DNA from: Candidatus Acidiferrales bacterium
GTDB taxonomy: Bacteria; Acidobacteriota; Terriglobia; Acidiferrales; UBA7541
Length of the DNA: 64,000 bases
Direction: 5' to 3'
Assembly (NCBI GenBank): GCA_963702915.1
Contig: OY969770.1
Coordinates: forward strand, 4,768,817 to 4,832,816
Below the pieces are notes generated by a model that saw only the letters and a program-made list of their open reading frames with translations, made no database searches and was not told the DNA's origin. Shown here piece after piece: positions 42,634-61,060 of the stretch; positions within the stretch are counted from its first letter, which is position 1; each line of letters starts with the position of its first letter. Made by a program: the position numbers and the translations under genes.

Positions 42634-42636
42634 GGT

Positions 42637-45315
42637 TCACTCGTACCTTAGTGCGATGACGGGATCAACGCGGGTGGCGCGATGCGCAGGGACGTAGCAC
42701 GCCAGCAAGGACACGGCTGCGAGCAACAGGCTGACCGCCGCAAGAGTGAGAGGATCCGAGGGGCGCACGCCGAAGAGCATGCTGGCCATTAGGCGCGTCA
42801 ATGCGAGTGCGGCGGCCAAGCCAATCCCAATTCCCAACAGGACCATTTTACCCGCCTGGCCCAACACCATACGGAAGACGTTGGCCCGTTCCGCGCCGAG
42901 GGCCATGCGAATGCCAATTTCGTGGGAACGCTGGCCTACGACATAGGAAATCACCCCGTAGATGCCGATCGAGGAGAGCAGCAAAGCGAGGGCAGCAAAC
43001 GCACCGAGGAGAATCATGGCAAAGCGCTGCGAGGCGAGGGAATCGGAAATCACGTCGCTCATTGTTTTCGTCCCATAGATGACAATCTGTCTGTTTACGC
43101 CCTGCACCGCATGGCTGAGGGAACTCATATTGGCAATCGGGGCGTCCTTGGTGCGTATCACTACGCCCGCACTATGGTCGAAGAGTGAGACAACAGAATC
43201 GGGGGTTTGCAATAATGGGAAATAACACTCCGCCTGAATATGCTCGGCATCGTCATCCAAGCTCCACTGCTTCACGTGGCCAACGATCCCGACGATTTCC
43301 GGGCTGGTGTTGACAATATCGAGATTGACGTGTTTTCCGATGGGATCCTGGCCTGCAAAGTACTGTTTCGCAAACTGTTCGTCGATCACGATCACAGGTG
43401 ACGAGTTTTCGTTATCGGAGTCAGTGAGGAACCGGCCGCGCTTCAACGGGATTTTCATAACATCCAGATAATCCGGTTCGGTAACGTAGAGGAGCGACGA
43501 CTTCATGTCTTGCATGGAGGCTGGCTTGGCCTCTCCTTCCAACCAGAAAGGGAGTTCCGAATCGCCTCTCAAAGGGGAGGCACCGACGGTGAGCGAAACA
43601 GATTGGACACCGGGAACGGCGCTAATGACGTCGTGAAGCTGGCGAAAGGCAGCGCGAGTGGCAGAAGGCGTAGAACCAAATGGATTGGCAGAGGCGAGAT
43701 TAAAACTTACGGCGTTGTGGGGATCAAATCCGGGCTTCACGCTCCAGAGCAGGGCCAAGCTGCGAATCATCAATCCAGCGCCGACGAGCAAGACCACGGC
43801 CAGCCCTATCTCCATCGCCACGAAGGCGCTCTGTGTGCGGTGGCGTGCCCCGCTTCCACCGCGTCCGCCTTGCTGCAGCGTTTCCTGGATGTCGGTCCGG
43901 GAAGCCTTGAATGCCGGCACCAGGCCAAACAGAATACCGGCAAAGGTAGAGGCAGCGAGGGTGAAGATGAAAACGCGAGCATCAAGATGAATGTCGCCAG
44001 CGCGCGGGAGAGCTTCCGGGAGAACCTTGAGTGCCGCCTGTGTGCCCCACGCAGCAAGAAACGTGCCTAATGTGCCGCCTGCGAGAGCGAGCAAAATGCT
44101 CTCCGTCAGAAGTTGGCGAACAACCCGGCCGCCACTGGCTCCGAGAGCGGTTCGAACGGCGAACTCCCTGGTTCTTCCTGTCGAGCGCGCCAGAAGCAAG
44201 TTTGCAACGTTTGCGCAAGCGATGAGGAGCACAAAGCCCACGGCGGCGAGAAGCATGAGGAGAAACGGCCGGATATCACCGACCATGTTTTCTTTCAGGG
44301 AGATGAGCGCGACGCCAGAATTCTTATCGATGTCGGGATAGACTTCGGCAAGGTGGGCCGCGATTGCACTCATGTCTGAATCTGCCTGGGCGAGAGTGAC
44401 ACCCGGCCGCAATCTTCCTATGGCGTCCATGCCCATGCTGGCGCGGCGATCACGGAACAAGGGCAGGTTCCACTGGCCGATGGGGACGTAAACATCGTCG
44501 TCGGATTGAAAATTGCCGCTTTGATAGTGAAAGCTCGCGGGAATCACGCCGGTGATGGTGTAGAGGATTCCGTTCAGAGTAATGGATTTTCCGACGACGG
44601 CAGAAGAAGAGTCGAACTTACGATTCCACAAGCCTTCGCTGATGAGGGCGACGGGGGCTCCGCCCAGCTGATCTTCCTGGTCGGTGAAGACGCGGCCGAT
44701 GAGGGGCTTGACGCCGAGGATCGTGAAAAAGGGCGCCGAAATCATGTTCGCTTTCAGGCGCTCCGGATCACCCATTCCGGTAAGGTTGAAACTATCCGAG
44801 CGGAAGGCGGCAAGATCGGAGAAAGAATGGTTGAAGCGGCGCCAATCCAGGAAATTTGGATAAGAGATAGAAGAGAATTTGAAGTCAGGAGTTTTGGCGT
44901 AAAGTGCGACCAGGCGATCGGGGTGATTGAAGGGCAAGGGATTCAACAGCACTCCATTGACAACGGAAAACAGCGCGGTGTTGGCGCCGATACCCAAAGC
45001 CAGCGTAAGAATGGCGATGGCGGTAAAACCAGGATTTTTGCGGAGCATGCGAAGGGCGAAACGCAAATCCTGGAGAAGGACTTCCACGGCGGGAAGGCCG
45101 CGGGAGTCGCGGACGGTTTCTTTGGTTTGTTGCAGGCCGCCGAGTTTGAGGAGGGCCTGGCGATGTGCTTCTTCCGTGGCCATACCGTTTTGGCGATTTT
45201 CTTCGATGGCCAGATCGAGGTGGGAGGCCATCTCGGCTTCGAGGTCTTGGTCGAGTTGTGCGCGGCGGAAGAGCGAGGCGAAGCGCAGGAGGAATTGGCG
45301 TAGGCGATCGATCAT
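42637..45315 (-). CDS. ADOP-type permease no. 6
   Basis: Prefix domain, GANTALFSVV, duplicated MacB/FtsX halves, DPVIALRYE. Confidence 0.93.
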   Translation of the reverse strand: MIDRLRQFLLRFASLFRRAQLDQDLEAEMASHLDLAIEENRQNGMATEEAHRQALLKLGGLQQTKETVRDSRGLPAVEVLLQDLRFALRMLRKNPGFTAIAILTLALGIGANTALFSVVNGVLLNPLPFNHPDRLVALYAKTPDFKFSSISYPNFLDWRRFNHSFSDLAAFRSDSFNLTGMGDPERLKANMISAPFFTILGVKPLIGRVFTDQEDQLGGAPVALISEGLWNRKFDSSSAVVGKSITLNGILYTITGVIPASFHYQSGNFQSDDDVYVPIGQWNLPLFRDRRASMGMDAIGRLRPGVTLAQADSDMSAIAAHLAEVYPDIDKNSGVALISLKENMVGDIRPFLLMLLAAVGFVLLIACANVANLLLARSTGRTREFAVRTALGASGGRVVRQLLTESILLALAGGTLGTFLAAWGTQAALKVLPEALPRAGDIHLDARVFIFTLAASTFAGILFGLVPAFKASRTDIQETLQQGGRGGSGARHRTQSAFVAMEIGLAVVLLVGAGLMIRSLALLWSVKPGFDPHNAVSFNLASANPFGSTPSATRAAFRQLHDVISAVPGVQSVSLTVGASPLRGDSELPFWLEGEAKPASMQDMKSSLLYVTEPDYLDVMKIPLKRGRFLTDSDNENSSPVIVIDEQFAKQYFAGQDPIGKHVNLDIVNTSPEIVGIVGHVKQWSLDDDAEHIQAECYFPLLQTPDSVVSLFDHSAGVVIRTKDAPIANMSSLSHAVQGVNRQIVIYGTKTMSDVISDSLASQRFAMILLGAFAALALLLSSIGIYGVISYVVGQRSHEIGIRMALGAERANVFRMVLGQAGKMVLLGIGIGLAAALALTRLMASMLFGVRPSDPLTLAAVSLLLAAVSLLACYVPAHRATRVDPVIALRYE

Positions 45316-45665
45316 GACTCGGCCTCCTCTTCTGGCATGGCGAGGACGCGGCTCATTACGATAGAAAGCCGTTGCCAGTAAGCGGCGTCTTCAGAGAGCT
45401 GTTTGCGGCCGCGTTTGGTAATGGAATAAAACTTGGCCTTGCGATTGTTGTCAGAGACGCCCCATTCGGCGGAGATCCAGCCGCGCTGTTGCAGACGGAC
45501 GAGAGAGGCGTAGATGGTGCCCTGATTCAGGAGGACTTGATCGCCGCTGACCTGTTCGATGCGCCGGGCAATGCCGTAGCCGTGGAGAGGACCCAGGGCG
45601 GCGAGGGTTTGCAGGACCATAAGGTCGAGGGTGCCCTGAAGAAGGTCGAGTTTGGAGTCGCTCAT
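45312..45665 (-). CDS. PadR-family regulator (acidobacterial type)
   Basis: LLQGTLDLMVL, LHGYGIARRIEQ, GTIYASL.RL, NNRKAKFYSIT; GGAGG RBS before ATG 45665. Confidence 0.93.
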   Translation of the reverse strand: MSDSKLDLLQGTLDLMVLQTLAALGPLHGYGIARRIEQVSGDQVLLNQGTIYASLVRLQQRGWISAEWGVSDNNRKAKFYSITKRGRKQLSEDAAYWQRLSIVMSRVLAMPEEEAES

Positions 45666-45673
45666 GAGGCCTC

Positions 45674-45723
45674 CTGTGTGATGACCACATGAAGATAACA
45701 TTGCTTCTGTGGGGATGCCACAG
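45674..45723. promoter_or_regulatory. Paired 6-5-6 palindromic operator candidates upstream of padR
   Basis: CTGTGT-GATGA-CCACAT (45674-45690) and CTGTGG-GGATG-CCACAG (45707-45723). Confidence 0.6.
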
Positions 45724-45789
45724 GAAGCCGGGAACGGCGGGCGGGAGGCCGATACTTCCCGGCCGCGGAATTCGGATTGGCATCGGAGG

Positions 45790-45881
45790 AACACGAGGGC
45801 GAGGAGGACAACGATGGCGAATCCTGGAATCGTGCGTAATTTCCTCAAGGCGTAACGGTTGTCCTTCCAGAAAAATTCCAT
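45790..45881 (-). pseudogene. Fragment of an ADOP permease N-terminus
   Basis: MEFFWKDNRYALRKLRTIPGFAIVVLLAL matches the LLQD.RFALRMLRK.PGF...L.LAL segment of the neighbouring permeases. Confidence 0.7.
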
Positions 45882-46111
45882 GGAGCCCTCATGTGGCGTT
45901 GCCGATTTCGGGTTATCCGTTTGCAGTTCCATCTCTTTCATGCCTCAGCCGCGGATCCTGTTCCAGAGGCAATGCGGGGTACATTCTCGATTGCCCTTAT
46001 TTCTAGATACGCAAGGGAGCGGAATTTGTTCAGCGCGGACGAAAGGAATAGGCTGCCCAGGATGCGAATATGAAACTGAGTTCCGCAGAGTGGTGAATTC
46101 CTGGGCAGGCG

Positions 46112-48793
46112 TCACTCGTACCTTAGGGCGATCATGGGATCGATGCGGGTGGCGCGGCGCGCGGGGAGCCACGCGGCGAGAAGGGCCGGCACCATGAGCA
46201 CGACGATTGCGCCGCCGTAGATCTGCGGGCTCCAGGCGGTTACGCCATAGAGAAACCCGCCCACCGTCTTCGCCAGGGCGAGCGAGGCGGCGACGCCACA
46301 GGCGAGCCCCGAGAAAGCAATGCCCAGAGTTCGCCACAGTTCCAACCTCAACAGGTCAGCACTCTTTGCGCCAAGCGCCATGCGGATGCCAAATTCCCGC
46401 GTGCGCTGGGCGATGGAAAGCGAAGCAATGCTGAATAGCCCCAATGTCGCGAGGAAGAGAGCGGCGGCCGCGAAAGCAGACAGCAAGACAACTCCGAAAC
46501 GGCGGTCGAGCGTAGTGGATTGCAGCAGGCGCTCCATGAGTTGGGGATGACTGACGGCCTGCTGCGGGTCAAGGCGCCAGACGGTTTGTTCAACAATGGG
46601 CAAAATGGCGGCCGGATCGATGCGCGTGCGAATCATGAACTGGTCGCTCCAAGGGTTGGCGGCCAGCGGTTGATAAAACTGCATTCTGGGCTCGCGCTCA
46701 AGAGAGCCGTCGTGGATGTCTTCAACCACTCCGACCACCGTGAGTGGCGGGTTATCGCCATCCCGGAACTGCTTGCCTACTGCGTCTTCGTTCGGCCACA
46801 GATTTGAGGCCATCTTGCGGTTGACGATGGCAAATCCATTTGGTTCGTCTTCGCGGAATTCGCGACCTGCAACTAGCGGGATGCGCATGGTCCGAAAGTA
46901 GCTGGCGTCCACCATGCGGTACTCGGCGCCCTCTCTCTCGCTGGCAGGAGAAGGACCGGCGACAGCATGCACATCATGAATATCCAATTCGCCGGTCAAG
47001 GGAACGTGGTTAATGACTGCGGCGGACTCTACGCCGGGGATGTTGCGGAATGCCGCGAGGAGTTCCTGAAGGTGGGCGAGCCGCTTTGTCGCGTCTTCGT
47101 TTGTTTTGGGATTCAGATCGACGGAAATGTTCAGGACGTTGTGAGGATCAAATCCGGGATTTACGCGGATTACGTTCGTGAAGCTTTGGATGAGAAGGCC
47201 AGCGCCGATTAGGAGAACCGTAGACACGCCAATCTGCATCGCCATCAGAATGGATTTTAGTCGCTTCGTGCGGCGATCGGTGGTGGCGGTGCGGCCCTCG
47301 CTGCGGAGCAAGGAAATGATCGCGGAGTGTGGGAGAACAGCCAGGGGCAGGGCTCCGAAGCCGATTGAGATGATGAAAGAAAGGGCCACGAGAAGGAGGG
47401 TAACGTGAAAGTCGATGCTGAGATCGTAAAGACGGGGCAGGCGAGCAGCGGCAACGTTTCGGATAAGAGAAAGAGCTGACATGCACAGCGGGAGGCTAAG
47501 AAAGGCGGCGCCGGCAACCAGCAGAGCTTGCTCGGCGAGATTTTCGCGGAAGAGTCGCCAACGAGTGGCACCGAGTGTCTCTCGTACGACAAACTCGCGC
47601 AGGCGCGCGACATTGCGGGTGAGGAGCAAATTCCCGAGATTGAAGAGGACGAGAGCAAGGAGTAGGCCGACGGCAGCGAGGAGCATCCAGAGTGCTTCGC
47701 GAATACCCCAAGACATTGACTCCCGCAGGGGCACGACCTGGACGCGCAGACTTGCGATCATTTGTTCAATCATGTCGCGGTAAGAGGGAACCTGGAGTTC
47801 CTCCTCGCGGAGGAGTTGAACCGCGCTGGCTTGGAACATTGCGGCGGCGCGCTGAGTGGTCACATCGTCCTTGAGGCGACCCAGCACGAAATAGTTGAAA
47901 TTACCCTGTTCGACGGCCTTCTCGGTAACTGGCAACGGGGTCCAGAACTCCGCTTGCTCGGGCGCCCAGGACATGATGCTGCGAATGTCGGCGAGGCGAG
48001 GAAAATCGAACCGTGGCGGCATGACCCCGACAACCGTTAACAGGGCGTCCCTCATCCGAATCGATCTGCCTACTACGCTTGGATCAGCCGCGAAAGCCCT
48101 CACCCACAGCTGATGGCTGAGAATGATGACATCCTCGTGGCCTGGGGTGGCATCCGCGGCCACGAAACCGCGACCGAGGAAAGGCCGCAACGCGAAGACG
48201 TCAAAGAACTCAGCGGTGACGCGAACACCATAGATTTTTTCGGCCTGTCCTTTTCCAAGAAGGACACAGTCCGCCGTGTCGAAGGCGGCGGCGTGTTCAA
48301 ATAGGCCGGACTGCTGCCAGCGCTGAAACTCGCCTAGAGTAGCGACGCTGGGGGTGGAACCAAGAGCCGGGAGCATCTGGGAAACTGTGACGACGCTATC
48401 GGAATGGGGGAAGTTCAATGGGCGGAGTATCACAGTTTGTACGAGGGCGAAAATCGTGTTCACCGCAGTCAAACCTAAAGCGAGAGTCAGCACCGCGATC
48501 GCAGTAAACGCGGGAGACTTGCGCAGCATGCGGAGGGCGAAGCGCGCGTCTTGAAGAAGTGTCTCGAGGAACGGGAAGGTGCGTTGGTCGCGGACGGATT
48601 CTTTGGTTTGCTCGAGGCCGCCGAGGGAGAGGAGGGCTTGGCGGCGGGCTTCGGCGGGGGACATGCCGATGCGGAGATTATCGGCGATGTGCATTTCTAG
48701 GTGGCTGGCGAGTTCGTCTTGCAGATCGCGATCAAGTTTGTTTTTGCGGAAGAGGTTGCGGAGGCGGAGAAAGAAAGTTCGCAGGGTTTTCAT
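46112..48793 (-). CDS. ADOP-type permease no. 5
   Basis: Prefix domain, duplicated MacB/FtsX halves, DPMIALRYE. Confidence 0.93.
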   Translation of the reverse strand: MKTLRTFFLRLRNLFRKNKLDRDLQDELASHLEMHIADNLRIGMSPAEARRQALLSLGGLEQTKESVRDQRTFPFLETLLQDARFALRMLRKSPAFTAIAVLTLALGLTAVNTIFALVQTVILRPLNFPHSDSVVTVSQMLPALGSTPSVATLGEFQRWQQSGLFEHAAAFDTADCVLLGKGQAEKIYGVRVTAEFFDVFALRPFLGRGFVAADATPGHEDVIILSHQLWVRAFAADPSVVGRSIRMRDALLTVVGVMPPRFDFPRLADIRSIMSWAPEQAEFWTPLPVTEKAVEQGNFNYFVLGRLKDDVTTQRAAAMFQASAVQLLREEELQVPSYRDMIEQMIASLRVQVVPLRESMSWGIREALWMLLAAVGLLLALVLFNLGNLLLTRNVARLREFVVRETLGATRWRLFRENLAEQALLVAGAAFLSLPLCMSALSLIRNVAAARLPRLYDLSIDFHVTLLLVALSFIISIGFGALPLAVLPHSAIISLLRSEGRTATTDRRTKRLKSILMAMQIGVSTVLLIGAGLLIQSFTNVIRVNPGFDPHNVLNISVDLNPKTNEDATKRLAHLQELLAAFRNIPGVESAAVINHVPLTGELDIHDVHAVAGPSPASEREGAEYRMVDASYFRTMRIPLVAGREFREDEPNGFAIVNRKMASNLWPNEDAVGKQFRDGDNPPLTVVGVVEDIHDGSLEREPRMQFYQPLAANPWSDQFMIRTRIDPAAILPIVEQTVWRLDPQQAVSHPQLMERLLQSTTLDRRFGVVLLSAFAAAALFLATLGLFSIASLSIAQRTREFGIRMALGAKSADLLRLELWRTLGIAFSGLACGVAASLALAKTVGGFLYGVTAWSPQIYGGAIVVLMVPALLAAWLPARRATRIDPMIALRYE

Positions 48794-48862
48794 TGGTGGG
48801 CCTCACTCGTACCTTAGGGCGATCATGGGATCGACGCGGGTGGCGCGGCGCGCGGGGATGTA
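48781..48862. repeat. 82-bp junction repeat (copies at 48781, 51463, 54124; 3' part also at 46112)
   Basis: By eye: 1 mismatch between 48781 and 51463, 4 mismatches to 54124. Spans a stop codon, a 9-nt spacer and the next start codon. Confidence 0.9.
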
Positions 48863-51475
48863 GCAGGCAAGCATGGAGACGACTATGAGGAGGAGAGGCA
48901 CGGCGATAAAAGTGGCGGGGTCGGTGGCCGCAATGCCGTACAGGAGGTGGCGGATGAAATGCACGGCGAAGAAAGAAGCCAACAGCCCAACGGCTACGCC
49001 AATCAAGGTCAGATAAGCCCCTTGGCGCAGCACCATTCGTGAAATGCTTCCACGCTGCGCGCCAAGGGCGATACGAATGCCCATTTCCCGGGTGCGCTGT
49101 ACGACGGAGTAGGAAATGACGCCATAGAGGCCAATTGCGGTTAATACAAAGGCCAAGGCGGCAAAGATACCGAGGAGGAGTGCCTCGAAACGAGGCGCCG
49201 AGATAGAACCACTGACGTACTCATCGAGGGTTCTGACTTCGCGCAGGGGAAGGTCCTTGTCCATGGAACTGACGAGGGAACGCATGGTGGGGACAAGCGA
49301 ATTGGGATCCATCGCAGTGCGGACCACAATCGTTGTCTCGCCAAAGAAATCGACGGGAGTTTGGGGAGCATAAACCTCGGGGACTGCCGTGTCGCCAATG
49401 CCGCTGGATTTCACATCGGCGATCACGCCAACGATCTCGCGGGCGGGAGCTTCCTGGCTATCGCCAAAAGAGATGCTCGGCGTAATTTTGCGGCCCAATG
49501 GGCTTTCGCCGTGGAAGATTTGGCGCGCGAGCGTTTCATTCACAATGGCAAGTGGCGGGCCGCCTTGTTCATCCTGGGGAGTAAAAGTGCGGCCCTGGAG
49601 AAGTCTGATACCCATGGTGTTGAAGTAGTGCGATTCAACAATGCGAAACGCGACACGCGGACGCTGCGAACTGGGAACTGGCTGGCCGAGAACCTCGAGC
49701 GTGGCGAAGGCGCTCTGGTCTTCGTTCAAGGGCAGGCCGAAGATGGCGCTGGCGGATTTCACGCCGGGCAGCACTCTGGCCGATTGTAAGAGTTCGCGAA
49801 CGAAAGCGGAGCGTTGAGGGCCCGGGTGGCGGTTGGAAGGCACATCGAGCAGAAAAGTGAGAACGTGGTCTGGGCGGAAGCCCGGATCGACGCGCAGCAG
49901 GCGATTGAAGCTGCGCAAAAGCAGGCCTGCGCCAATCAGCAACACGAACGCTATTGCCAGTTGGGAGATCACGAGAGCGCCGCGCAGGCGGACGGCACTC
50001 GGTCCCGTGCTGGAGCCCCGTGCGTACTCACTCAAAACTTGGCTGGGATTGGAATGGGAAGCTTGAAAAGCCGGCGCGAGGCCAAAGAGGATGCCGGCAG
50101 CAAGGGCAACGAAGAATGTGAACGCCAGCACGCGGAAATCGAGGCCGATCTCCGATGTGCGTGCCAACCCTTCCGGCGCCATGGAGACAAGTGCAGTCGT
50201 TGCCCAATGAGCAAACAAAAGTCCCAGAGCTCCGCCGAAGAATGACAGGAGTATGCTTTCCGCAAGGAGTTGCCGGACGATGGCCCAGCGGCCAGCGCCC
50301 AGGGCAGAGCGGATGGTGAACTCCTTCTGACGCACAGTCGCGCGAGCGAGCAAAAGACTGGCAACATTGGCGCAGGCAATGAGCAACACAAAGGCAACGG
50401 CCCCCAGAAGGATCATCAGCACCGGACGCATGTCGCCAGCGATTTGTTCGGACTCTGATTGAATCTCCACGCCCCGAGGACGATTTTCAGGATATTGCCG
50501 ATTCAACTGTTGCTGGACAAAGAGGACATCGGACTGCGCCGCAGGAATTTGGATGTCCGGTTTGAGACGAGCGACGACCCAGAGATAAGAGGCGCCGCGT
50601 TGCGCAGCCATCGGTATTTTGCCGCGCAGGTCATGGGCCATGGTGATCCATAATTCCACGCGATCTTTCTCCACCGGAAACTGGAAACGCGGAGGCATGA
50701 CTCCGACAACGGAGTACTTGCTGTCATCCAAAGTCAAAGCGCGGCCAAGCACGTGGGGATCTCCGCCGAAGTGGCTTTGCCAGAACTCATAGCTGAGAAT
50801 GACCGGCATATTGTCGCCGCCGGGACGATCTTCCTGCACAATAAAAGTTCTGCCGAGGGCGGGCGAGGCACCCAGCAAGAAAAACAGATTCGCGGAAACT
50901 TCAACACTCCGGATGCTTTCAGGTTGATCGCCGCTGGTGTAGGTGAGATTAGTGACGGTCCAGACGGACATGGCTTCGAAGGAATGGCTTTGCGCGCGCC
51001 AGTCGAGAAACGAAGGGTAGGAAATGTCTCCGCCTTGGGTTGCATCTTTGAGGTCGATGGAACGAACCGCGACCAGACGGGCGGGATCGTGAAATGGCAA
51101 CGGACGAAGAACAACGGCATCAAGAACACTGAAGATGGCGGTGTTGGCACCGATGGCGAGGGCCAGCGTGAGAATGGCAATGGCGGTAAAGCCGGGATTT
51201 TTGCGGAGCATGCGGAGGGCGAAGCGTGAATCTTGGAGGAGGGACTCAAGAAGAGGGAAGGTGCGCTGATCGCGGACGGATTCTTTGGTTTGTTCGAGGC
51301 CACCGAGAGAGAGGAGGGCATTGCGGCGGGCTTCGACGGGGGACATGCCGAAGCGGAGATTATCGGCGATGTGCAAATCGAGGTGGGCGGCCAACTCATC
51401 GTGCAATTCGCGATCGAGCTTGTCCTTGTGTAGGAAGTCGCGGAGGCGGAAGAAAAAAGTGCGCAGGGTTTTCAT
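48803..51475 (-). CDS. ADOP-type permease no. 4
   Basis: Same architecture, DPMIALRYE. Confidence 0.93.
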   Translation of the reverse strand: MKTLRTFFFRLRDFLHKDKLDRELHDELAAHLDLHIADNLRFGMSPVEARRNALLSLGGLEQTKESVRDQRTFPLLESLLQDSRFALRMLRKNPGFTAIAILTLALAIGANTAIFSVLDAVVLRPLPFHDPARLVAVRSIDLKDATQGGDISYPSFLDWRAQSHSFEAMSVWTVTNLTYTSGDQPESIRSVEVSANLFFLLGASPALGRTFIVQEDRPGGDNMPVILSYEFWQSHFGGDPHVLGRALTLDDSKYSVVGVMPPRFQFPVEKDRVELWITMAHDLRGKIPMAAQRGASYLWVVARLKPDIQIPAAQSDVLFVQQQLNRQYPENRPRGVEIQSESEQIAGDMRPVLMILLGAVAFVLLIACANVASLLLARATVRQKEFTIRSALGAGRWAIVRQLLAESILLSFFGGALGLLFAHWATTALVSMAPEGLARTSEIGLDFRVLAFTFFVALAAGILFGLAPAFQASHSNPSQVLSEYARGSSTGPSAVRLRGALVISQLAIAFVLLIGAGLLLRSFNRLLRVDPGFRPDHVLTFLLDVPSNRHPGPQRSAFVRELLQSARVLPGVKSASAIFGLPLNEDQSAFATLEVLGQPVPSSQRPRVAFRIVESHYFNTMGIRLLQGRTFTPQDEQGGPPLAIVNETLARQIFHGESPLGRKITPSISFGDSQEAPAREIVGVIADVKSSGIGDTAVPEVYAPQTPVDFFGETTIVVRTAMDPNSLVPTMRSLVSSMDKDLPLREVRTLDEYVSGSISAPRFEALLLGIFAALAFVLTAIGLYGVISYSVVQRTREMGIRIALGAQRGSISRMVLRQGAYLTLIGVAVGLLASFFAVHFIRHLLYGIAATDPATFIAVPLLLIVVSMLACYIPARRATRVDPMIALRYE

Positions 51476-51484
51476 TGGTGGGCC

Positions 51485-54136
51485 TCACTCGTACCTTAGG
51501 GCAATCATGGGATCGACGCGGGTGGCGCGGCGCGCGGGGATGTATGTGGCAAGAAGCGCGGCCAGCAAAAGAACCGCCGCAACGATGGAGATGGCAACGG
51601 GATCAATCGCGGTCACTTCATACAAGACGGACTTCATAGTGCGACCGACAAAGTAGGTGCCAGCCAAGCCCAGGAGCAATCCGGCTAAGGCAAGCAGCAT
51701 CCCTTCCTGAAGGACCATGCGAAGCACCTGGCTGGAATCCGCGCCCAGGGCCATGCGCAGGCCGATTTCGTGGGTTCGTTGAGCCACTGCAAAAGACATG
51801 ACGCCATAGATGCCGATGGCCGCAAGGATGAGGGCGACGCCGGCAAACGCGGCAAAGAGCACGGTGGCGAAGCGATCGTCGGCCAAGGATTCGGCGACGA
51901 GTTGATCCATGGTGCGCACCTGGTCGAGGGGGAGATCGGAATCGAGAGATTGCACGGCAGCGGTAACAGCGGTGGTGACGGTTGCAGGATCGACGGTGGT
52001 GCGCACCGCAATGCTGGCCGAGGGCCAGGGGCTTTGCCAGAAAGGGACGTTGATTTCGGGGAAGCCTTCGTTGCGAACGCCACCATTGTGGACATCGCGA
52101 TAGACGCCGACGATATGCCATTGGATGGGCCGGCCAGGACTAGTCGCGCCAGGAATCAACTCTCGCACGACGACGATTTGGGAGAGCGGGTCCAGGTTGG
52201 AGAAGTACTTTTTCGCGAAAGTCTCATTCACGACGGCGACGGGCAGCCCGCCGGCCACGTCCTGTTCAGTGAAGCCGCGTCCCATAGCGAACTGAATCCC
52301 AAAGGTTTGGAAATATTCGGGAGTGACCATGCTGAATCCGGCGCTGGGATGCGAGGCAGGATCACCAGTGGGTTGACCAAGGATGCTGAAGGGCATGTCG
52401 TCTCTGTCGCCGACAAGGGGCATGCCGGTGGAAGCGGAAGAGGAGTAGATTCCGGGAACGGCGGCAATCCTGTCCAGCAGTTGACGGTAAAAGGAGGCAG
52501 TCTGTTCGGAATTAGAAAAGCGGCCCTCGGGAACGGGCAAATCGAAAGTGAGAACGTGGTCCTGGCGAAAACCGAGATCGACGCGAGTCAGTTTCCAGAA
52601 GCTATGAATGACAAGTCCGGCACCGGCAAGCAGAGTCAGCGCCAGGGCAAACTCGAGCACGACAAGAGCGCGGCGCACTCCGTGACGTCCGGAAGTGGAA
52701 CCGGAGCGTCCACCCTCTTTCAAAACTTCAGCGAGATCCGAGTGAGACCCCTGCCAAGCCGGAACGCAGCCAGCCAGAACGCCGGCCAGAAGGGTTGCCA
52801 GCAAGGTGAAAAGCAGGACCGGCAAATTCAAGCGCACGTCCGCTTCGGTGGGAATGGAAAACGGTGGCAGAAGAACGAGGATGAACTTAAGCAAAATCGC
52901 CGCGAGGGCAACTCCCAAGACGCCGCCGATGGATGCCAGAGCAAGGCATTCGGCGAGGAATTGCGAGAAGAGTTGCCAGCGGGTTGCGCCGAGAGAAGCG
53001 CGAACGGCCAGTTCTTTTTGGCGTATGGAGCCGCGAGTGAGCAACAAGTTGGCGACGTTGACGCAAGCGATTAGCAAGACAAAGCCGACGGCGCCGAGGA
53101 GCAACCAGAGATTTTTAATGGTGTCACGGCTCGTAAAGGCATTCTGGAGAGGTACGACACTGGCGCCCCAGTTCTTGTTAGAAAGAGGATAAACCTCAGC
53201 GATGTGGCGCGTGACGGAGTCCATGTCGGCGTTGGCTTGCTGGAGGGTGACGCCGGGTTCAAGGCGGCCGATGAGCAAGAGCCAATGGTAGTCGTGGTTG
53301 ATCTGGTCTGGCTTGAAGGCCAGGGGAAGAAACAGGTGGGATTCAAAGCGATCGGACATGCCGGCAGCGACGACGCCAACCACGGTGTAGGGTATGCCGT
53401 TCAGGGGGATTTGCTGGCCCAGGATGTGGGGATCGCTGCCGAAGCGCTCTTGCCAAAGGTGATGGGTCATGATGACGACGTGCTCATTGCCGGGCTGCGC
53501 TTCTTCGGGGAGGAAGTCGCGGCCAAGAGCCAGCGGTATTCCCTGCATATCGAAGAAGCCAGGCGTTGTGATGCGGGCTTGCAAGACTTCCGGGTGACTG
53601 GAAGTGGAAAGTGTGAAACGGTCGCTGCTCATGGCGATGAGATCCTGGAAGACCGAATTCTGGCGCTTCCAATCCAAATAATCGCCGGCGGAAACGCTGT
53701 TGTTGTGATCGTTGACCCGCGACCAGACCATGACAAGCTGGTCGGGATTCGGATAAGGCAAGGGAGCAAGCAGGGTGGCATAGACGACAGAGAAGATGGC
53801 GGTATTGGCGCCGATGCCGAGGGCGAGGGTGAGAACGGCGACGGCGGTGAACGCGGGGCTCTTGCGCAAAAGGCGGAAACCAAAACGTAGATTGCGGAAG
53901 AGAGACTCGATGGCGGTTGCGCCGCGGAGTTCGCGGACGGATTCTTTGGTTTGCTCGAGGCCGCCTAGTTTCAGGAGGGCTTGGCGGCGGGCATCGGCGG
54001 GGGACATGCCTGCGCGGAGGTTGTCGGCGATGTGCATTTCGAGGTGCGTGGCGAGTTCGTCGCGCAATTCGCGGTCGAGCTGCCCTTTGTGGAAGAGGTC
54101 GTGGATGCGGGCGACAAAGGTTCGCAGTGTTTTCAT
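51485..54136 (-). CDS. ADOP-type permease no. 3
   Basis: Same architecture. The second ATG (54136, MKTLRT) matches the paralogous junctions; the ORF track uses 54142. Confidence 0.92.
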   Translation of the reverse strand: MKTLRTFVARIHDLFHKGQLDRELRDELATHLEMHIADNLRAGMSPADARRQALLKLGGLEQTKESVRELRGATAIESLFRNLRFGFRLLRKSPAFTAVAVLTLALGIGANTAIFSVVYATLLAPLPYPNPDQLVMVWSRVNDHNNSVSAGDYLDWKRQNSVFQDLIAMSSDRFTLSTSSHPEVLQARITTPGFFDMQGIPLALGRDFLPEEAQPGNEHVVIMTHHLWQERFGSDPHILGQQIPLNGIPYTVVGVVAAGMSDRFESHLFLPLAFKPDQINHDYHWLLLIGRLEPGVTLQQANADMDSVTRHIAEVYPLSNKNWGASVVPLQNAFTSRDTIKNLWLLLGAVGFVLLIACVNVANLLLTRGSIRQKELAVRASLGATRWQLFSQFLAECLALASIGGVLGVALAAILLKFILVLLPPFSIPTEADVRLNLPVLLFTLLATLLAGVLAGCVPAWQGSHSDLAEVLKEGGRSGSTSGRHGVRRALVVLEFALALTLLAGAGLVIHSFWKLTRVDLGFRQDHVLTFDLPVPEGRFSNSEQTASFYRQLLDRIAAVPGIYSSSASTGMPLVGDRDDMPFSILGQPTGDPASHPSAGFSMVTPEYFQTFGIQFAMGRGFTEQDVAGGLPVAVVNETFAKKYFSNLDPLSQIVVVRELIPGATSPGRPIQWHIVGVYRDVHNGGVRNEGFPEINVPFWQSPWPSASIAVRTTVDPATVTTAVTAAVQSLDSDLPLDQVRTMDQLVAESLADDRFATVLFAAFAGVALILAAIGIYGVMSFAVAQRTHEIGLRMALGADSSQVLRMVLQEGMLLALAGLLLGLAGTYFVGRTMKSVLYEVTAIDPVAISIVAAVLLLAALLATYIPARRATRVDPMIALRYE

Positions 54137-54145
54137 TGGCATGCC

Positions 54146-56794
54146 TCACTCGTACCTTAGGGCGATCATGGGATCGACGCGGGTGGCGCGGCGCGCGGGG
54201 ATGTAGGTGGCGAGGAGTGCCACAGCAGTCAGTATTAGCGACAGAGCGACAAAGGTGAATGGATCTCTAGGGGTGACACCGTACAGTAAGCTTGCGAGTA
54301 GGCGAGTGAGCGAGAATGCAGCAAGAATCCCAGCGCCTAGACCGATTATGGTGAGCATCAGTCCTTCTCTGACCACCATCCGCAAGATGTCTCCGCGTGT
54401 GGCTCCTAGGGCCGTGCGAATGCCGATTTCGTGTGTCCGCTGACTGACTGAATAGGAAAACACACCGTAGATGCCTACTGCTGAGAGCACCAGGGCAATG
54501 ACGGCGAAGATGCCCAGCATCGAGGCGGAAACGTGTTGCCGCCAAATCGATTCGGAAACAACGTTTTCCATGGTTCGTATCTGGATCACTGGCTGGTCAT
54601 GGTCGATTTCCGAGACGGCGTGACGTACGTCGGCGGCAATCTGCATAGGGTCCGAGGCTGTGCGGACGACGAAGGTGATCAAGAACGAGGCGAAGGGGCG
54701 CTGTCCATACGGCATATATACTTCCTCCTCTGGCGGCGATTCGACCGAGTTCTGCTTGGAATCCGCAACGACGCCCACAATTAAAGCGGGAACGTCATGC
54801 GGGCAAGCGCCAAGAACTTGCGTGCTCACGGGGTCTTTTCCGGACCAATGGCTGTGCGCCATGGTTTCGTTGACGATGCGAACGCAGGGAGCACCTTGCT
54901 GGTTGTCGGCCTGGGTGAAATCACGTCCCTCTTTTAGAGGGATCCCCATAGCCTGAAAATACCCGGGACTTACGGCGCGAGCTGCAACCATGCTGCCACC
55001 GGTACTGTCCCGTGAATTCGGGGGAGCGGGAAAGTCGATCATGGTTTGAAATCCCGTTATCGGCAGGTTATTCACCATTCCTGCGGACTTCACGCCAGGG
55101 ATGCCTTGGATACGCTCGAGCACGCTATTGTAAAAGGCCACAGACTGCGGGCCCTGCTCATACTTGTAGTTCGCCAGCGGCACTCGCACTGTCAGAACAT
55201 GTGCACGATTGAAGCCCATGGGGGTCGCCTCAAGGCGCCGGAAGCTTTGAATCATCAATCCGGCTCCGATCAGCAGGACCAGGGCCAATGCCACTTCCAC
55301 AGCAACGAGCGCGCGCTGAAGCCATGATCGCCGCGTGCCAGATCCCGAGGTCCCGCCGCGTTGTTTGAGCGATTCATTCAGATCGAGACGGGAGACGCGT
55401 AGAGCGGGTAGCAAGCCCACGGTGATTCCCGTGAACAACGAGAGGGCTACGGTAAAGCCGAGGACGGGGAGATTAATCGAGATGTGGCGCAAAGCTTGGG
55501 TTTCCACCAAGCTGAACTTGGGCAATAGGTTTAAGATCATGGCAACCCCTGATGACGCCAACACAAGGCCCAAGACGCTGGCGGCTCCCGCGAGCAGCAC
55601 AGCCTCGACAACCAGTTGCCGAATCAATGTCATGCGGCCAGCGCCCAAGGCGGCTCGAATGGCCATCTCTCCTTGCCGGGTAGTGGCGCGAGCGAGAAGC
55701 ATGCTGGTCACGTTGGAGCAGACGATTAGGAGCACAAAGACCACGGCTCCCAGGAGAGCGAAAATAGCCGAGCGAAGGATCCCGCCGATTTCCCCGCTCT
55801 TGAAAGGTTCCACAGAAGCGGTCAGGCCACCGTTGGTGTCGGGGTACTGCATGGCAAGCCTGCGAGCAACCAGGTCCATTGCGGCTTGAGCTTTTTTCAA
55901 GGTGATGTCCCCTTTGAGGCGGGCGATCACTTCGATGGCGCGGAGCTTGCGGTTGTTTTCCTCAGCGACGCTAGTGATGAGAGGAACCCATACTTGGGTG
56001 TTGGGGTCTGGAAATTCAAGATTAGCAGGAGCGACGCCAATTACCGTGTAGGGCTTGCCGTCGAGGGCCACGGTCTTGCCGATGATTTTGGGGTCGGCGG
56101 CGAAATGGCTGTGCCAATAATCTTCACTCAGGAGTACGGACTGGGTTTCATTCACCGCAAAGTTGCGTCCGAGGATTGCGTTGGCTCCCAGCAGATGAAA
56201 AAGATTGGTAGACACTTGGGAGACCCACACCTCATCCGGGTCCCCGACGCCTGTTAGTACGAGGAACTTCCACGACTCATACGCGGCTAGGTCCTCAAAA
56301 ACTTGGGGCTTGGTCTGCGCCTGCCAGTCATGGAAGTCCGCCGTGGAAACCGAATCTGGTACGCCTTGTGGGTTTCGTGCCCTGATTTCGACGAGTTGGG
56401 CCGGATTATGATAGGGCGTTCCGTGCAACAGCACGGTGTCAACGATGCTGAACACGGCTGTCGTGCCACCGATTCCCAACGCCAAAGTAACCACGGCCAC
56501 AGCCGTAAACCCGGGACTGCGGCGCAATTGGCGCAAGCCATAGCGCACGTCCTGGAGGAGTGTTTCAAAAAATGGGAAGGCGCGCTGGTCACGGACGGAT
56601 TCTTTGGTTTGCTCGAGGCCGCCGAGTTTTAGGAGGGCGATGCGGCGAGCTTCTTCGGGGGGCATGCCGGAGCGGAGGTTGTCGGCGATGTGCATATCGA
56701 GATGACTGGCTAGCTCATCGTGCAGATCGCGATCGAGCTGTTCTTTTTGGAACAGATTACGCAGGCGGAAGAAAATGGTGCGCATGGAGTTCAT
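54146..56794 (-). CDS. ADOP-type permease no. 2
   Basis: Same architecture, DPMIALRYE. Confidence 0.93.
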   Translation of the reverse strand: MNSMRTIFFRLRNLFQKEQLDRDLHDELASHLDMHIADNLRSGMPPEEARRIALLKLGGLEQTKESVRDQRAFPFFETLLQDVRYGLRQLRRSPGFTAVAVVTLALGIGGTTAVFSIVDTVLLHGTPYHNPAQLVEIRARNPQGVPDSVSTADFHDWQAQTKPQVFEDLAAYESWKFLVLTGVGDPDEVWVSQVSTNLFHLLGANAILGRNFAVNETQSVLLSEDYWHSHFAADPKIIGKTVALDGKPYTVIGVAPANLEFPDPNTQVWVPLITSVAEENNRKLRAIEVIARLKGDITLKKAQAAMDLVARRLAMQYPDTNGGLTASVEPFKSGEIGGILRSAIFALLGAVVFVLLIVCSNVTSMLLARATTRQGEMAIRAALGAGRMTLIRQLVVEAVLLAGAASVLGLVLASSGVAMILNLLPKFSLVETQALRHISINLPVLGFTVALSLFTGITVGLLPALRVSRLDLNESLKQRGGTSGSGTRRSWLQRALVAVEVALALVLLIGAGLMIQSFRRLEATPMGFNRAHVLTVRVPLANYKYEQGPQSVAFYNSVLERIQGIPGVKSAGMVNNLPITGFQTMIDFPAPPNSRDSTGGSMVAARAVSPGYFQAMGIPLKEGRDFTQADNQQGAPCVRIVNETMAHSHWSGKDPVSTQVLGACPHDVPALIVGVVADSKQNSVESPPEEEVYMPYGQRPFASFLITFVVRTASDPMQIAADVRHAVSEIDHDQPVIQIRTMENVVSESIWRQHVSASMLGIFAVIALVLSAVGIYGVFSYSVSQRTHEIGIRTALGATRGDILRMVVREGLMLTIIGLGAGILAAFSLTRLLASLLYGVTPRDPFTFVALSLILTAVALLATYIPARRATRVDPMIALRYE

Positions 56795-56884
56795 GGCGCT
56801 GCCACCGGAGTGAGTGATTCGTGACTTGTGGATCGTGATTCGTGGAAGCGAAAACCAAGATGAGAGATAAGAAAGTTGGTGTGG

Positions 56885-57016: not shown

Positions 57017-57059
57017 GAAGCTGGATGCTGCGAGGGGAAAAACAAGGCGCGCGGTTGGG

Positions 57060-57764
57060 TCATGGAGCACCGTGGGCGGAGGCAGTTGGTTTTTCGGGGA
57101 GGAGCCAGCCATCGGCTAGTTGCAGGATGCGATTGCCGTAGCCGGCGTTTCTTTCGGAATGCGTGACTTGAATGATGGTGGTGCCGGCGTCATTGAGTTT
57201 CTTGAAGAGCTGCATGATTTCTTCGCCTTGCGTGGAATGGAGATTGCCGGTGGGCTCATCGGCGAGAATGAGCTTGGGATTCTGGATGACAGCGCGGGCC
57301 ACGCCGACGAGTTGCTGCTGGCCGCCGGAGAGCTGACTGGGGAAGAGATCTTTTTTGCCGACGATGTTGAAGCGATCGAGAGCGTCGCAGACGAGGCTGG
57401 CACGTTCCTTTTGCGGGATGTTTTTGTAGGAGAGTGGGATTTCAAGATTTTCGTAAACGGTGAGATCGTCGATGAGGTGGTAAGACTGAAAGACGAAACC
57501 GATGTTGTACTTGTGCAGTTCGTTTCGCTGTTTGACGCTCAGTTTATGGACGGGCTGATCGAGGAAAAAGTATTCGCCGGACCAGGCGGAATCCAACATG
57601 CCGAGGATGCTGAGGAGGGTGGATTTGCCAGCGCCGGAAGGGCCCATGAAGGTGACGAATTCGCCAGGCTGGATTTCCAGAGAGATGCGGCGGAGGACAT
57701 AGAATTTCTGCGCGCCAGCGGGGTAGGATTTTTCGATGCTGCGAAGTTGGATGAGTGGCTGCAC
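57060..57764 (-). CDS. ABC transporter ATP-binding protein (LolD/MacB type)
   Basis: [29 protein letters not shown]. Confidence 0.94.
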
Positions 57765-57776: not shown

Positions 57777-60488
57777 TTATTCGTAACGAAGAGCAATGAT
57801 GGGGTCGACGCGGGTGGCGCGGCGCGCGGGGAGATAGGCTGCGAGGGCGGCGGAACTGAAGAGAACGAGTGCGGCGGCGGAAAACGTTATGGGATCGGAG
57901 GGCTTCAATTCGTAGAGCATGGATTGGAGAAGCTTGGTCATAGCGATAGCCAAACCTAGGCCAATGGCGGTGCCTACACCGACGACAGCGAGAATTTGGC
58001 GCAGAATCAGCCAGAGAACGTTTTGGCGAGTGGCGCCCAGAGCGATGCGGATGCCAATTTCGCGGGTCCGGCGCAGCACGGTGAAAGCAACAACACCGTA
58101 GATGCCGATGGCGGCGAGAAAGGTGGCCAAGAAGCCGAACAGGCTGGTGAGCCAGCTCACGAGGCGATCCTGGGTGAGGGACTCGTCGATTTGGGTGGAA
58201 AGTGTCTTCACCTCATAGAGGGGAAGATTGGGATCGACTTGATGAACCTGATCGCGAATCAGTTCAGCGGACTTTATGGGATCGCCGACAGTCTTGATGT
58301 GCAGGGTCAGGTCGAACAAATGCGGAATTTGGGAGAGAGGGACGTAAAAGTGGAGACGGGAGTGTTCCTTGAGATTTACGTACTTTGCGTCCCTGACGAC
58401 GCCGACAATTTCGATGGTTGGCTTGGCGCCGGGAGTGTCATTTGTGTCGATGTGCTTGCCGAGGGGGTTGCGGTCACCGAAGAAGTAGTGAGCCATGGAT
58501 TCGTTGATGACGGCAACTTTGGGAGACGTGGCGAGGTCGGTTTCGGAGAACTCGCGACCGGAGGTGATAGGAATGCCGAGGGTTTTGAAGTAATCGCTGG
58601 AAACAGCGGCGGCGTTGGGGTTCATGGTTTCGCCGTCGCGGGGCTGGTAGCCTTCGACGATGACGCTTTCGGTGTCCCATCCGCCGGAGATGGGAGAGTA
58701 GGTGGCGAGGCTGGCGGAGCGCACACCAGGAGTGGAGCGCACACGCTCGAGTATTTCGTTGAAAAGATTCCGGACGCGATCGGGGGAATACTGATTCAAG
58801 GAAGGGTCGAGATTGGCCAGGAGGATATTCTCCTTTGCGAAGCCGGGGTCCATGGTGCGGAGATTTCTGAGGCTGTGCAAAAACAATCCAGCGCCGATAA
58901 GAAGGGGAAGGCACAGAGCGACCTGAAGAGCGAGCAAGAGCGATCGAAGATTAAATAGATAGGCCCCTTGAACAATCGAAGGAGCTTCTCCCCGCATTAC
59001 ATCGGAAAGGGGCGAGCGCGATGCGCGGAGGCCCGGGGCCAGGCCGATGAACAGACCCATCAGAATAGCCACGCCCAAGGCAAAGCCGAAGCTGCCCAGG
59101 TTTAGCGGCTGCTGGAGATTGGTTTGAAAATCGGCAGGAAGAAAAGCAACCAGGGCAGACTTTGACCAGAAGGCGACAATCACGCCCGCCGCGCCGCCAG
59201 CAAACGAAGTGATGACGCTTTCCGTGAGCCATTGTTGCAGGAGGCGCGATTGAGTAGCACCGAGGGCCAAGCGCACAGCGGTTTCTGACTTGCGCGCCAC
59301 GGTGCGAGCAAGAAGCATGTTGGCGAGGTTGGCGGTGAGAATCAGAAGAACAATCGTGGTGACCGCCAAGAGCAAGAAGAGGGGGCGGCGGAATTGCTGT
59401 TGCATATGCAGAAATCCGCGGCTGCCATCGGTCAATTTCAGTTGTACGCGAAGGAATCTTTCGTGGTCAAGGGCGCTGCCGGTGGACAATTGCGACACTT
59501 CCGCAGCGCGAAGTTGGTGAAAGAGAATTTCCATCGAGGCTTGAGCCTGGGCGAGAGGAACATCAGGTTTGCGGCGGCCCATGACGGTCAACCAGCGGTA
59601 CGCGCGGCTTTGCAAGCGGTTAAAGGGAAGAGGAACGAAGAGGGGCGTCATCTTAAAGGGCACCTGCACGGCAGGATTGTTGGACAAGTCGGTGCCATAG
59701 AAACCGGGCGGAGTGACGCCAATGACGATGAAGGAATGGTCGTTGAGAATGATCTTGCGATTCACGATGGACGCATCACTCCCGAAACGAAGCTTCCAGA
59801 AATCGTAACTGATTACCGCGACGGGAGATGCGTTTTGATTTTCGTCGTCGGCGTCGTCAAGCAAACGGCCAATCCATGGGCGAACGCCGAGGACGGAGAA
59901 ATAGTCACCGGAGACCAGTTCGCCACGAACGCGTTCGCTGGCGCCCTGGAAGACGAGGTTCATGGGAACGCCGCTGCGAGCGACGAGGCCGGACAAGACA
60001 TCATTTTTGCCGCGCAGATCGCGATACATAGGATAGGAAAAGGAAAAGTTGGAGTAGCCGTAGCCTTCGCTGGAGGAAAGCAGGGCGAGCTCCTCAGGGT
60101 TGTGGACCGGCAACGGGCGGCTCAGGACAGACTGCATGAGAGAGAAGATGGCAGCATTTCCGCCGATACCGAGGGAAATGGTGAGGATGGCGACGACGGT
60201 AAAGGCAGGAGATTTGCGGAGCATGCGGAGGGCGAAGCGCACGTCTTGCAGGAGGGATTCAAGGAAGGGGAAGGTGCGTTGATCGCGGACGGATTCTTTG
60301 GTTTGTTCGAGGCCACCGAGGGTGAGGAGCGCGATGCGACGGGCTTCTTCTGGGGTCATTCCGGAACGGAGATTGTCTGCGATGTGCATTTCTAAGTGAC
60401 TGGCGAGTTCGTCTTGCAGATCGCGATCGAGCTGTTCTTTGCGGAACAGGTTGCGGAGGCGCTGGAACCAGATGCTTAGAGGTCTCAT
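57777..60488 (-). CDS. ADOP-type permease no. 1
   Basis: Prefix domain, duplicated MacB/FtsX halves, DPIIALRYE. Confidence 0.93.
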   Translation of the reverse strand: MRPLSIWFQRLRNLFRKEQLDRDLQDELASHLEMHIADNLRSGMTPEEARRIALLTLGGLEQTKESVRDQRTFPFLESLLQDVRFALRMLRKSPAFTVVAILTISLGIGGNAAIFSLMQSVLSRPLPVHNPEELALLSSSEGYGYSNFSFSYPMYRDLRGKNDVLSGLVARSGVPMNLVFQGASERVRGELVSGDYFSVLGVRPWIGRLLDDADDENQNASPVAVISYDFWKLRFGSDASIVNRKIILNDHSFIVIGVTPPGFYGTDLSNNPAVQVPFKMTPLFVPLPFNRLQSRAYRWLTVMGRRKPDVPLAQAQASMEILFHQLRAAEVSQLSTGSALDHERFLRVQLKLTDGSRGFLHMQQQFRRPLFLLLAVTTIVLLILTANLANMLLARTVARKSETAVRLALGATQSRLLQQWLTESVITSFAGGAAGVIVAFWSKSALVAFLPADFQTNLQQPLNLGSFGFALGVAILMGLFIGLAPGLRASRSPLSDVMRGEAPSIVQGAYLFNLRSLLLALQVALCLPLLIGAGLFLHSLRNLRTMDPGFAKENILLANLDPSLNQYSPDRVRNLFNEILERVRSTPGVRSASLATYSPISGGWDTESVIVEGYQPRDGETMNPNAAAVSSDYFKTLGIPITSGREFSETDLATSPKVAVINESMAHYFFGDRNPLGKHIDTNDTPGAKPTIEIVGVVRDAKYVNLKEHSRLHFYVPLSQIPHLFDLTLHIKTVGDPIKSAELIRDQVHQVDPNLPLYEVKTLSTQIDESLTQDRLVSWLTSLFGFLATFLAAIGIYGVVAFTVLRRTREIGIRIALGATRQNVLWLILRQILAVVGVGTAIGLGLAIAMTKLLQSMLYELKPSDPITFSAAALVLFSSAALAAYLPARRATRVDPIIALRYE

Positions 60489-61002: not shown

Positions 61003-61009
61003 GGTGCTC

Positions 61010-61060
61010 CTATGGGAAAGCCATAGAGAAGCTACGCCAACTCCTATGGGAAAGCAATAG
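61010..61060. promoter_or_regulatory. Paired 6-5-6 palindromic operator candidates upstream of padR
   Basis: CTATGG-GAAAG-CCATAG (61010-61026, perfect) and CTATGG-GAAAG-CAATAG (61044-61060). Confidence 0.7.

Follow-up and report, generated by a model that had tools for sequence, protein, structure and literature searches.

In Rhs and CdiA-CT orphan-module arrays, a conserved core/CT boundary permits variable modules to be swapped by homologous recombination. ADOP permeases are among the largest unexplained gene expansions in soil Acidobacteria, and the ADOP literature that we found describes only the expansion of paralogues, with no report of junction homogenisation, mosaicism or core replacement. 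PMC3914696, which cites Ward et al. 2009 on ADOP clusters, describes a 10-paralogue cluster in Psychroflexus torquis. Other duplicated prokaryotic genes, for example tufA/tufB and amoCAB, show concerted evolution by gene conversion (surveyed by Wang & Chen 2018, PMC6053082). Here we describe an array of ADOP permease genes in a 64,000-nucleotide (nt) stretch of the genome of Candidatus Acidiferrales bacterium (assembly GCA_963702915.1, contig OY969770.1, positions 4,768,817 to 4,832,816; hereafter the window, in whose coordinates features are given unless stated otherwise). A sequence-only reading of the window had proposed that near-identical junctions between four tandem permease genes act as homology arms, allowing the array to expand, contract or shuffle its substrate-binding cores like a cassette library without a dedicated recombinase. 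Comparison of the array with the rest of the genome and with related genomes suggests that paralogous permeases have exchanged sequence at their ends, and that whole permease bodies have been replaced between conserved flanks.

Results

Near-identical junctions between divergent permease genes

All genes of the locus are on the minus strand, with the transcription order PadR1-A-ATPase-B-C-D-E-gap-PadR2-F-G-HlyD-ATPase2, where A to G are ADOP permeases. The four tandem genes B (54146..56794, core ~54226-56448), C (51485..54136), D (48803..51475) and E (46112..48793, core ~46186-48480) all match the ADOP model TIGR03434. Their pairwise identity is only 37-45% in protein and 49-54% in DNA, in keeping with the strong divergence of the periplasmic domains that had been noted by eye.

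The genes are joined by an 82-bp block. A fuzzy regular-expression search of the whole genome (5,556,121 bp in a single contig) found this block exactly where it had been reported, at the D|E junction (48781..48862, taken as reference), the C|D junction (51463..51544, one mismatch) and the B|C junction (54124..54205, four mismatches), all on the minus strand, and found no further copy. Each copy comprises the last 19 codons of the upstream gene (YIPARRATRVDPMIALRYE), a TGA stop codon, a 9-nt spacer and the start of the next gene, ATGAAAAC(C/A)CTGC; at B|C this means the tail of B and the start of C. The spacer is GGCCCACCA at two junctions and GGCATGCCA at one. Every junction carries the Shine-Dalgarno-like motif GAGTGAGG, which overlaps the stop codon and stands 7 nt ahead of an ATG. 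Gene E, too, ends in the coding part of the block, as the sequence-only reading had stated (46112..46171, minus strand, 97% identical over 60 nt), and no ADOP gene lies downstream of it. This partial copy, found at 46090, has 14 mismatches, all within the non-coding or next-gene part.

The identity begins abruptly, 61 nt ahead of the end of the stop codon, and covers the non-coding spacer as well as the coding sequence. The block is real, but the similarity extends beyond 82 bp, with an identity of about 80-90% over the first ~300 nt of the following gene. An additional in-frame ATG is present at 54142 in the B|C spacer and arose by the substitutions that distinguish GGCATGCCA from GGCCCACCA. 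Gene C may start there (MPMKTL..., 3 nt past the B stop) or at the homologous position 54136 (MKTL...); we adopted the homologous start, MKTLRTF.

An RNA element at the junction was considered and rejected, as the fold has a z-score of +0.66 and there is no Rfam match with E<=1 across 38-64 kb. An attC-like DNA structure was rejected in the same way (z-scores of -0.52 and -0.07 against shuffled sequences). No recombinase, integrase or transposase domain was found among the large open reading frames (ORFs) of the window. With neither a recombinase domain nor an attC-like fold, the view that the array works without a dedicated recombinase is supported.

Junction identity exceeds constraint and codon bias

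The C-terminus YIPARRATRVDPMIALRYE is found throughout the family and aligns with the final residues of MacB (5LIL). The sequence-only reading had recognised that equal synonymous divergence (dS) in junctions and cores would leave protein constraint and codon bias as sufficient explanations. Among B-E, dS (Nei-Gojobori) lies between 0.00 and 0.14 in the tails and is 1.6 or more in the cores, although the tail has only ~16 synonymous sites and each pairwise value is imprecise. Divergence is thus close to zero in the tails and saturated in the cores.

Under the codon usage of the genome, another gene encoding this peptide would match all 19 codons with a probability of 3e-9; the tail includes the rare codons CTA (4%) and AGG (5%). 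Identical synonymous-codon runs of 17-19 at the 3' end were found in 0/5000 permutations for the pairs B-D and B-E (p<=2e-4). At conserved residues, codon identity is 0.35-0.45 in the cores and reaches 0.96 over the last 13-20 codons of B-E; over the same codons it is 0.53 for pairs involving A, F or G. ADOP paralogues outside the B-E run (partly also F) have nearly the same tail peptide but encode it with other codons. Codon bias or protein constraint alone is ruled out by the probability of 3e-9 and by the use of other codons in ADOP tails of the same peptide, both in this genome and in relatives.

Tails evolve in concert within the array

We compared the array with the orthologous locus of related genomes, anchored by the gene for the MacB/LolD-type ATP-binding cassette (ABC) ATPase at 57060..57764 (minus strand; NCBIfam DarD, MacB and LolD ATPase models). 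The locus was available from three other species of the same genus (G005, G004 and G017, of which G004 is a fragmented assembly) and from a 479-kb metagenome contig (L055). Amino acid identity to the anchor ATPase is 96-97% in G005 and G004, 96% in L055 and 88% in G017. Orthologue dS relative to the source genome is 0.35-0.45 for L055 and 0.6-0.9 for G005.

The tail of D has a dS of 0.00 to its paralogue B and of 1.24 to its own orthologue in G005, D'. Two synonymous sites read GCG/GAT in all four tails of this genome, but GCC/GAC in G005 C' and in all three tails of L055, the closest relative. These shared, genome-specific synonymous states indicate that the tails were homogenised separately in each lineage, and the homogenisation seen here postdates the split from L055. 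Three features typical of concerted evolution were found. The affected tract is closer between paralogues than between orthologues, synonymous and non-coding identity exceeds what codon bias would give, and the tract and the rest of the gene have incongruent phylogenies (in E, and by maximum chi-square in the L055 C prefix; see below). The interpretation of the junctions as gene-conversion tracts gains support from a tail dS near zero, from genome-specific synonymous states shared by paralogues and from the identical spacer.

Homogenisation with B-E does not extend to the tails of F and G. Nor have the tails of other tandem ADOP arrays been homogenised, either elsewhere in this genome or in G010, G001 and G017, even though their peptide is the same. 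This indicates a local, historical effect rather than a general sequence requirement.

The 5' prefix module

At its 5' end gene E carries a 'permease prefix' (48480..48793, minus strand; NF038403 perm_prefix_1, repeat family D1). Equivalent prefixes on the same strand start D (51160-51475), C (53820-54136), B (56450-56794) and permease A (60163-60488). This module is probably the cytoplasmic N-terminal domain plus the first transmembrane (TM) segment. The prefixes of A-E are 74-84% identical to one another. A second conserved block, reported in five genes, does match its pattern exactly in A-E, always within the prefix (48591-48622, 51273-51304, 53934-53965, 56592-56623 and 60286-60317), and occurs in F at 45110 with four mismatches. 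Synonymous-codon identity is 0.6-0.83 in the prefixes against 0.35-0.45 in the cores, and runs of 13-17 synonymously identical codons are significant for D-E, A-D and C-E (p 4e-4 to 9e-3). Blastn high-scoring segment pairs (HSPs) that run into the next gene could be taken to indicate a prefix-by-prefix positional orthology (B = D', E = C'). We do not claim this, since any two prefixes are 70-84% alike and their tree is a star without resolved branches.

Mosaic genes and replaced cores

Gene E is a mosaic, with array-type sequence in its first ~330 nt and last ~60 nt and a core that is sister to a paralogue at genome position 2,929,043, 1.9 Mb away (76% nt identity, with the next best match at 46%). 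The grouping of E with this paralogue has 100% support in the core tree and is rejected in the prefix tree (difference in log-likelihood 83; approximately unbiased (AU) test p reported as 1e-164).

At three positions, those of A, of the first gene after the ATPase and of the last gene, the core has been swapped while orthologous flanks were kept. The kept flanks are ~300 nt of 5' prefix and a tail of 65-90 nt, and the unrelated cores between them are 2.2-2.4 kb long. Around the A position, this genome, G005 and G004 share PadR1 and the ATPase at 88-95% identity. The permease is 73-88% identical over its first ~270-300 nt and 87-92% over its last ~65 nt, but ~45% over its 2.35-kb core, whichever two of the three genomes are compared. 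The core of A (~57838-60162) is non-orthologous to that of the same-position gene in G005, G004 and L055. A clade of the three A-position cores is rejected (difference in log-likelihood 375, AU p 6e-5), and the closest relative of the G005 A' core is a gene elsewhere in G017.

The first position after the ATPase (B against D' and G004-8536) shows the same pattern as the A position, and among 120 genomes of the genus the core of B has no orthologue above 44% identity. At the last position, E was compared with Y of L055. A colinear match of 5,641 nt (87.8% identity) stops 313 nt inside E/Y; identity drops to ~40% in the cores and returns to 88-90% in the last ~75 nt and the downstream sequence.

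The suggestion that substrate-binding cores are shuffled like a cassette library was thus only partly right. Whole cores have been replaced, but the unit is the entire body, with eight TM segments and both periplasmic domains, rather than the substrate-binding domains alone. For most replacing cores (A, B and Y), no donor was found in the array or elsewhere in the genome.

Among the prefixes, that of C in L055 has a breakpoint at about nt 150-206, where its affinity changes between B and C of the source genome (maximum chi-square 44.8, p<=1e-4). We rejected the idea that it is a clean B/C hybrid made by a single unequal crossover, as B-like and C-like sites (20 and 16, respectively) are mixed in its 5' part, and we describe it only as a mosaic. 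Elsewhere in the genome, the genes at C1:2,929,043-2,931,760 and C1:2,887,892-2,890,624 have sister prefixes (100% support) and cores in different major clades, and by this comparison form a further prefix/core mosaic. Segments of 85-90% and of 47-60% nt identity alternate between G and its G005 counterpart G' (39875-42640 against G005 20412-23093), which suggests further, internal mosaicism in the periplasmic domains.

Array content and order in related genomes

Between the ATPase and PadR2 this genome has four genes (B-C-D-E), G005 has three (D'-C'-X) and G017 has X alone. In L055 the ATPase is followed by C-D-Y-X, and the available sequence stops inside X. In G004 it is followed by an unrelated gene and then by a gene with a C-like start (MKTLRIFFARIHD), where the contig ends. 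Both C and D have true orthologues in other genomes (79-93% identity). The C orthologues are 86% identical in nt in G005 and 93% in amino acids in L055; the D orthologue precedes C' in G005, a reversed order, and follows C in L055 (87% amino acid identity), as it does here.

X is an ADOP gene without a prefix that is present in G005, G017 and L055. Its 2.5-kb body is missing here, but the sequence downstream of E (45794..46111, minus strand) matches the G005 C'-X intergenic region and the first ~117 nt of X and is what remains of the 5' end of that gene (blastn HSP between W 17815-18207 and G005 14486-14878, 77% identity). Array content is therefore not identical in relatives. The expansion, contraction and reordering foreseen by the sequence-only reading are seen as four, three and one genes among congeners, and as C-D against D'-C'. 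Two further metagenome contigs, from more distant relatives (L059 and L068, ATPase identity 83-84%), differ in gene order, with C-like cores (66-70% amino acid identity) placed upstream of the ATPase. Such positions hint at shuffling over longer time scales as well, although orthology is uncertain at such distance.

Neighbouring genes and intergenic repeats

The genome has 15 ADOP paralogues. Permeases A-G score 747-986 bits against TIGR03434 (cut-off 622.3) and cover the model from position 1 or 2 to 803 of 803. The duplicated MacB_PCD and FtsX architecture of ADOP was confirmed; in D, Pfam finds two stretches of each. The C-terminal half aligns with residues 391-663 of MacB 5LIL, up to the last residue of MacB. 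The 'orphan' trait, the absence of an ATPase alongside, does not apply to this locus, as there is an ATPase between A and B and an ATPase with a HlyD protein after G; 'orphan' is a historical ADOP label that lies outside the definition of the TIGR03434 hidden Markov model.

The locus begins with a PadR1-containing ORF (60658..61260, minus strand; Pfam PadR) upstream of A, orthologous in G005, G004 and L055 (85-95% nt identity). Permease A (57777..60488, minus strand; 909 bits against TIGR03434) is the first gene after it. The anchor gene encodes the sole ATPase adjoining permeases A-E, and a gap of 265 nt with a terminator-like hairpin separates it from B. A PadR2-containing ORF (45312..45941, minus strand; acidobacterial PadR model TIGR03433, 129.6 bits, with the PadR domain in its C-terminal half) opens the next unit, PadR2-F-G-HlyD-ATPase2. 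This unit contains permeases F (42637..45315) and G (39875..42520/42640), both TIGR03434 matches with orthologues in G005. After G come the HlyD-type adaptor (38610..39878) and then the second ATPase (37678..38379), all on the minus strand. The longest ORF of G has a GTG start overlapping the F stop, and the conserved start (MIDRLRQ...) is ~120 nt further downstream. The F-G interval (42520-42640) has an orthologous counterpart in G005 and could contain a leader or a small upstream ORF.

The ATPase-B gap (56858-57037) and the PadR1-A gap (60504-60640) share a ~160-nt composite of small palindromes, for example GCCCACCCTT...AAGGGTGGGGC and GCACAGACA...TGTCTGTGC, and the two copies are 76-83% identical. 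Compared with G005 and G004, whose PadR gene overlaps the start of the permease gene, this genome carries the PadR1-A copy as an insertion. One hairpin of the composite, which lies behind the ATPase gene at 56989-57012, also receives a terminator score. Three copies of another repeat, of ~79 nt with the palindrome CCGGGACGGCAAAGGGCGCCGTCCC, lie at 61108-61186, 62498-62576 and 62602-62680 and are 78-85% identical. This is probably an intergenic element of the repetitive extragenic palindromic (REP) or miniature inverted-repeat transposable element (MITE) type.

Discussion

We consider it likely that the near-identical junctions arose when tandem ADOP paralogues recently underwent gene conversion or unequal homologous recombination with one another. 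Protein constraint would keep the end modules, the ~300-nt prefix and the ~60-nt tail, similar in every ADOP gene, with the fixed 9-nt spacer and the Shine-Dalgarno-like GAGTGAGG over the stop codon coming after the tail. As the ends stay similar, the general recombination machinery, which we infer to be of the RecA type, could pair genes that are otherwise unalignable. One outcome would be homogenisation of the ends within a genome, which is concerted evolution. The other would be crossovers within the ends that delete, duplicate, reorder or replace the 2.2-2.4-kb bodies. Conversion would thus account for the identical junctions, and unequal or double crossovers for the deletions (X here; B, absent in L055), the reordering of C and D and the replacement of bodies. 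The conserved ends would then be the cause of exchange, which might carry an adaptive benefit of some kind, and 82 bp of perfect identity might now raise the local exchange rate.

The idea that the junctions are homology arms needs to be modified in one respect. Breakpoints do fall in conserved ends, but they map to the ~300-nt prefix and the 65-90-nt tail rather than to the 82-bp block. The 82-bp identity may be a product of recombination rather than its cause, and the orthologue comparisons gave no sign of selection keeping the arms identical.

Several points weigh against exchange between paralogues, beside the small number of synonymous sites in the tail. No recombination event was observed directly. 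Whole-prefix dS between paralogues is 0.7-1.0, not below orthologue divergence, so the prefix has not been recently homogenised overall, only in sub-tracts. The last ~15 nt and the length of the 9-nt spacer are conserved in four genomes, which probably reflects translational coupling, and part of the identity need not therefore stem from conversion. Donors for the A, B and Y cores were found neither in the same genome nor among 120 congeners, and replacement may thus have been by horizontal transfer.

This last point also favours a different explanation, that the locus has been shaped mainly by horizontal import of foreign ADOP alleles into conserved flanks, with junction identity as a by-product. 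The closeness of the G005 A' core to a gene elsewhere in G017 fits such import, and we regard it as a real possibility. However, the C/D reversal, a gene E related to a resident paralogue, and tails homogenised genome by genome all require exchange within a genome. The two routes are not exclusive, as both can use the same homology arms: the donor might be a resident paralogue for E, and another lineage for A, B and Y. For most replacing cores, we consider arrival from another lineage no less likely than the shuffling of a resident library. Selection at the nucleotide level for translational coupling, acting on the Shine-Dalgarno-like motif in the tail, the fixed spacer and an unstructured initiation region without any recombination between paralogues, seems to us an improbable explanation. 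It would explain why GAGTGAGG, 7 nt and ATG recur at every junction, why TGA and a 9-nt spacer, with differing letters, are found at ADOP-to-ADOP junctions of G005, G004, G017 and L055, and why the rare AGG is used preferentially in tails closely trailed by another ADOP gene. It would not explain why orthologous or analogous junctions of relatives differ at many synonymous sites and in the letters of the spacer, why the 45 nt farthest from the next start are equally identical, or why the E tail is kept with no gene after it. The synonymous states are specific to each genome and common to its paralogues, orthologue dS in tail and prefix is not consistently below that of the cores, and the junction folds no better than shuffled sequence.

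The tandem arrangement and identical ends could also be those of recent duplicates in which diversifying selection drove the cores apart very quickly and the ends did not change. This is very improbable, because core dS is saturated and the orthologues of C and D at 79-93% identity in G005 and L055 make the paralogues older than those species. In addition, the E core is nearest to a gene elsewhere in the genome and the B core has no relative above 44% in the 120 congeners. An assembly artefact, whether collapse or mis-join, is scarcely credible either. Repeats could mislead an assembler, and the fragmented G004 contig does end just past such a junction. The sequence-only reading had named collapse as a danger, but here the perfect repeat is only 82 bp between unique 2.2-kb cores in a single-contig genome, and the C-D order and junction are colinear on the independent metagenome contig.

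If exchange between conserved ends is the correct interpretation, a more general scheme can be imagined, though we think it unlikely. ADOP loci might form a homology-armed plug-in system for the permease bodies of the very large ADOP pan-genome. Prefix and tail would dock to shared ATPase and regulatory partners and double as universal recombination arms. Any permease body might then be insertable into an expressed, translationally coupled slot. This scheme agrees with the three independent core replacements seen between orthologous flanks in the four close genomes. If true, it would allow quick turnover of efflux or export specificity in soil Acidobacteria without a recombinase, with junction homogenisation raising the exchange rate.

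Exchange between conserved ends would mean that ADOP arrays change by the exchange of whole bodies between conserved cytoplasmic ends rather than by slow divergence in place. Such exchange would explain the unrelated permeases that occupy the same slot in neighbouring genomes whose ATPases are 96-97% identical. The locus also cautions against relying on orthology calls and short-read assemblies of ADOP arrays. Array variants in populations offer a simple route to ask about diversifying selection on the transporter repertoire.

The locus resembles the known ADOP clusters in its tandem duplicated MacB/FtsX-type permeases with PadR regulators and ABC ATPases. Like integron cassettes, its genes are head-to-tail promoterless cassettes with short conserved boundaries, but there is no integrase and no folded attC-like site, the boundaries are coding and exchange depends on homology. 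By analogy, it is closer to Rhs and CdiA-CT arrays, with tandem variable cassettes that have conserved borders, lack a dedicated recombinase and differ between close relatives. Unlike those arrays, it consists of complete, coupled and presumably expressed genes with two conserved ends, and has no silent fragments, no toxin/immunity pairs and no evidence of selected switching. With tufA/tufB and amoCAB it shares paralogues that are closer within a genome than orthologues are between genomes, synonymous and non-coding identity, and inferred homologous recombination. In those cases whole genes are homogenised, whereas here only ~60 nt and parts of ~300 nt are affected, and the bodies are ~40% identical in protein. 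The mechanism, gene conversion and non-allelic homologous recombination, is textbook knowledge. Here it appears restricted to short end modules of otherwise unalignable genes and, unlike the classical conversion cases, coupled to a cassette-like turnover of the bodies between them.

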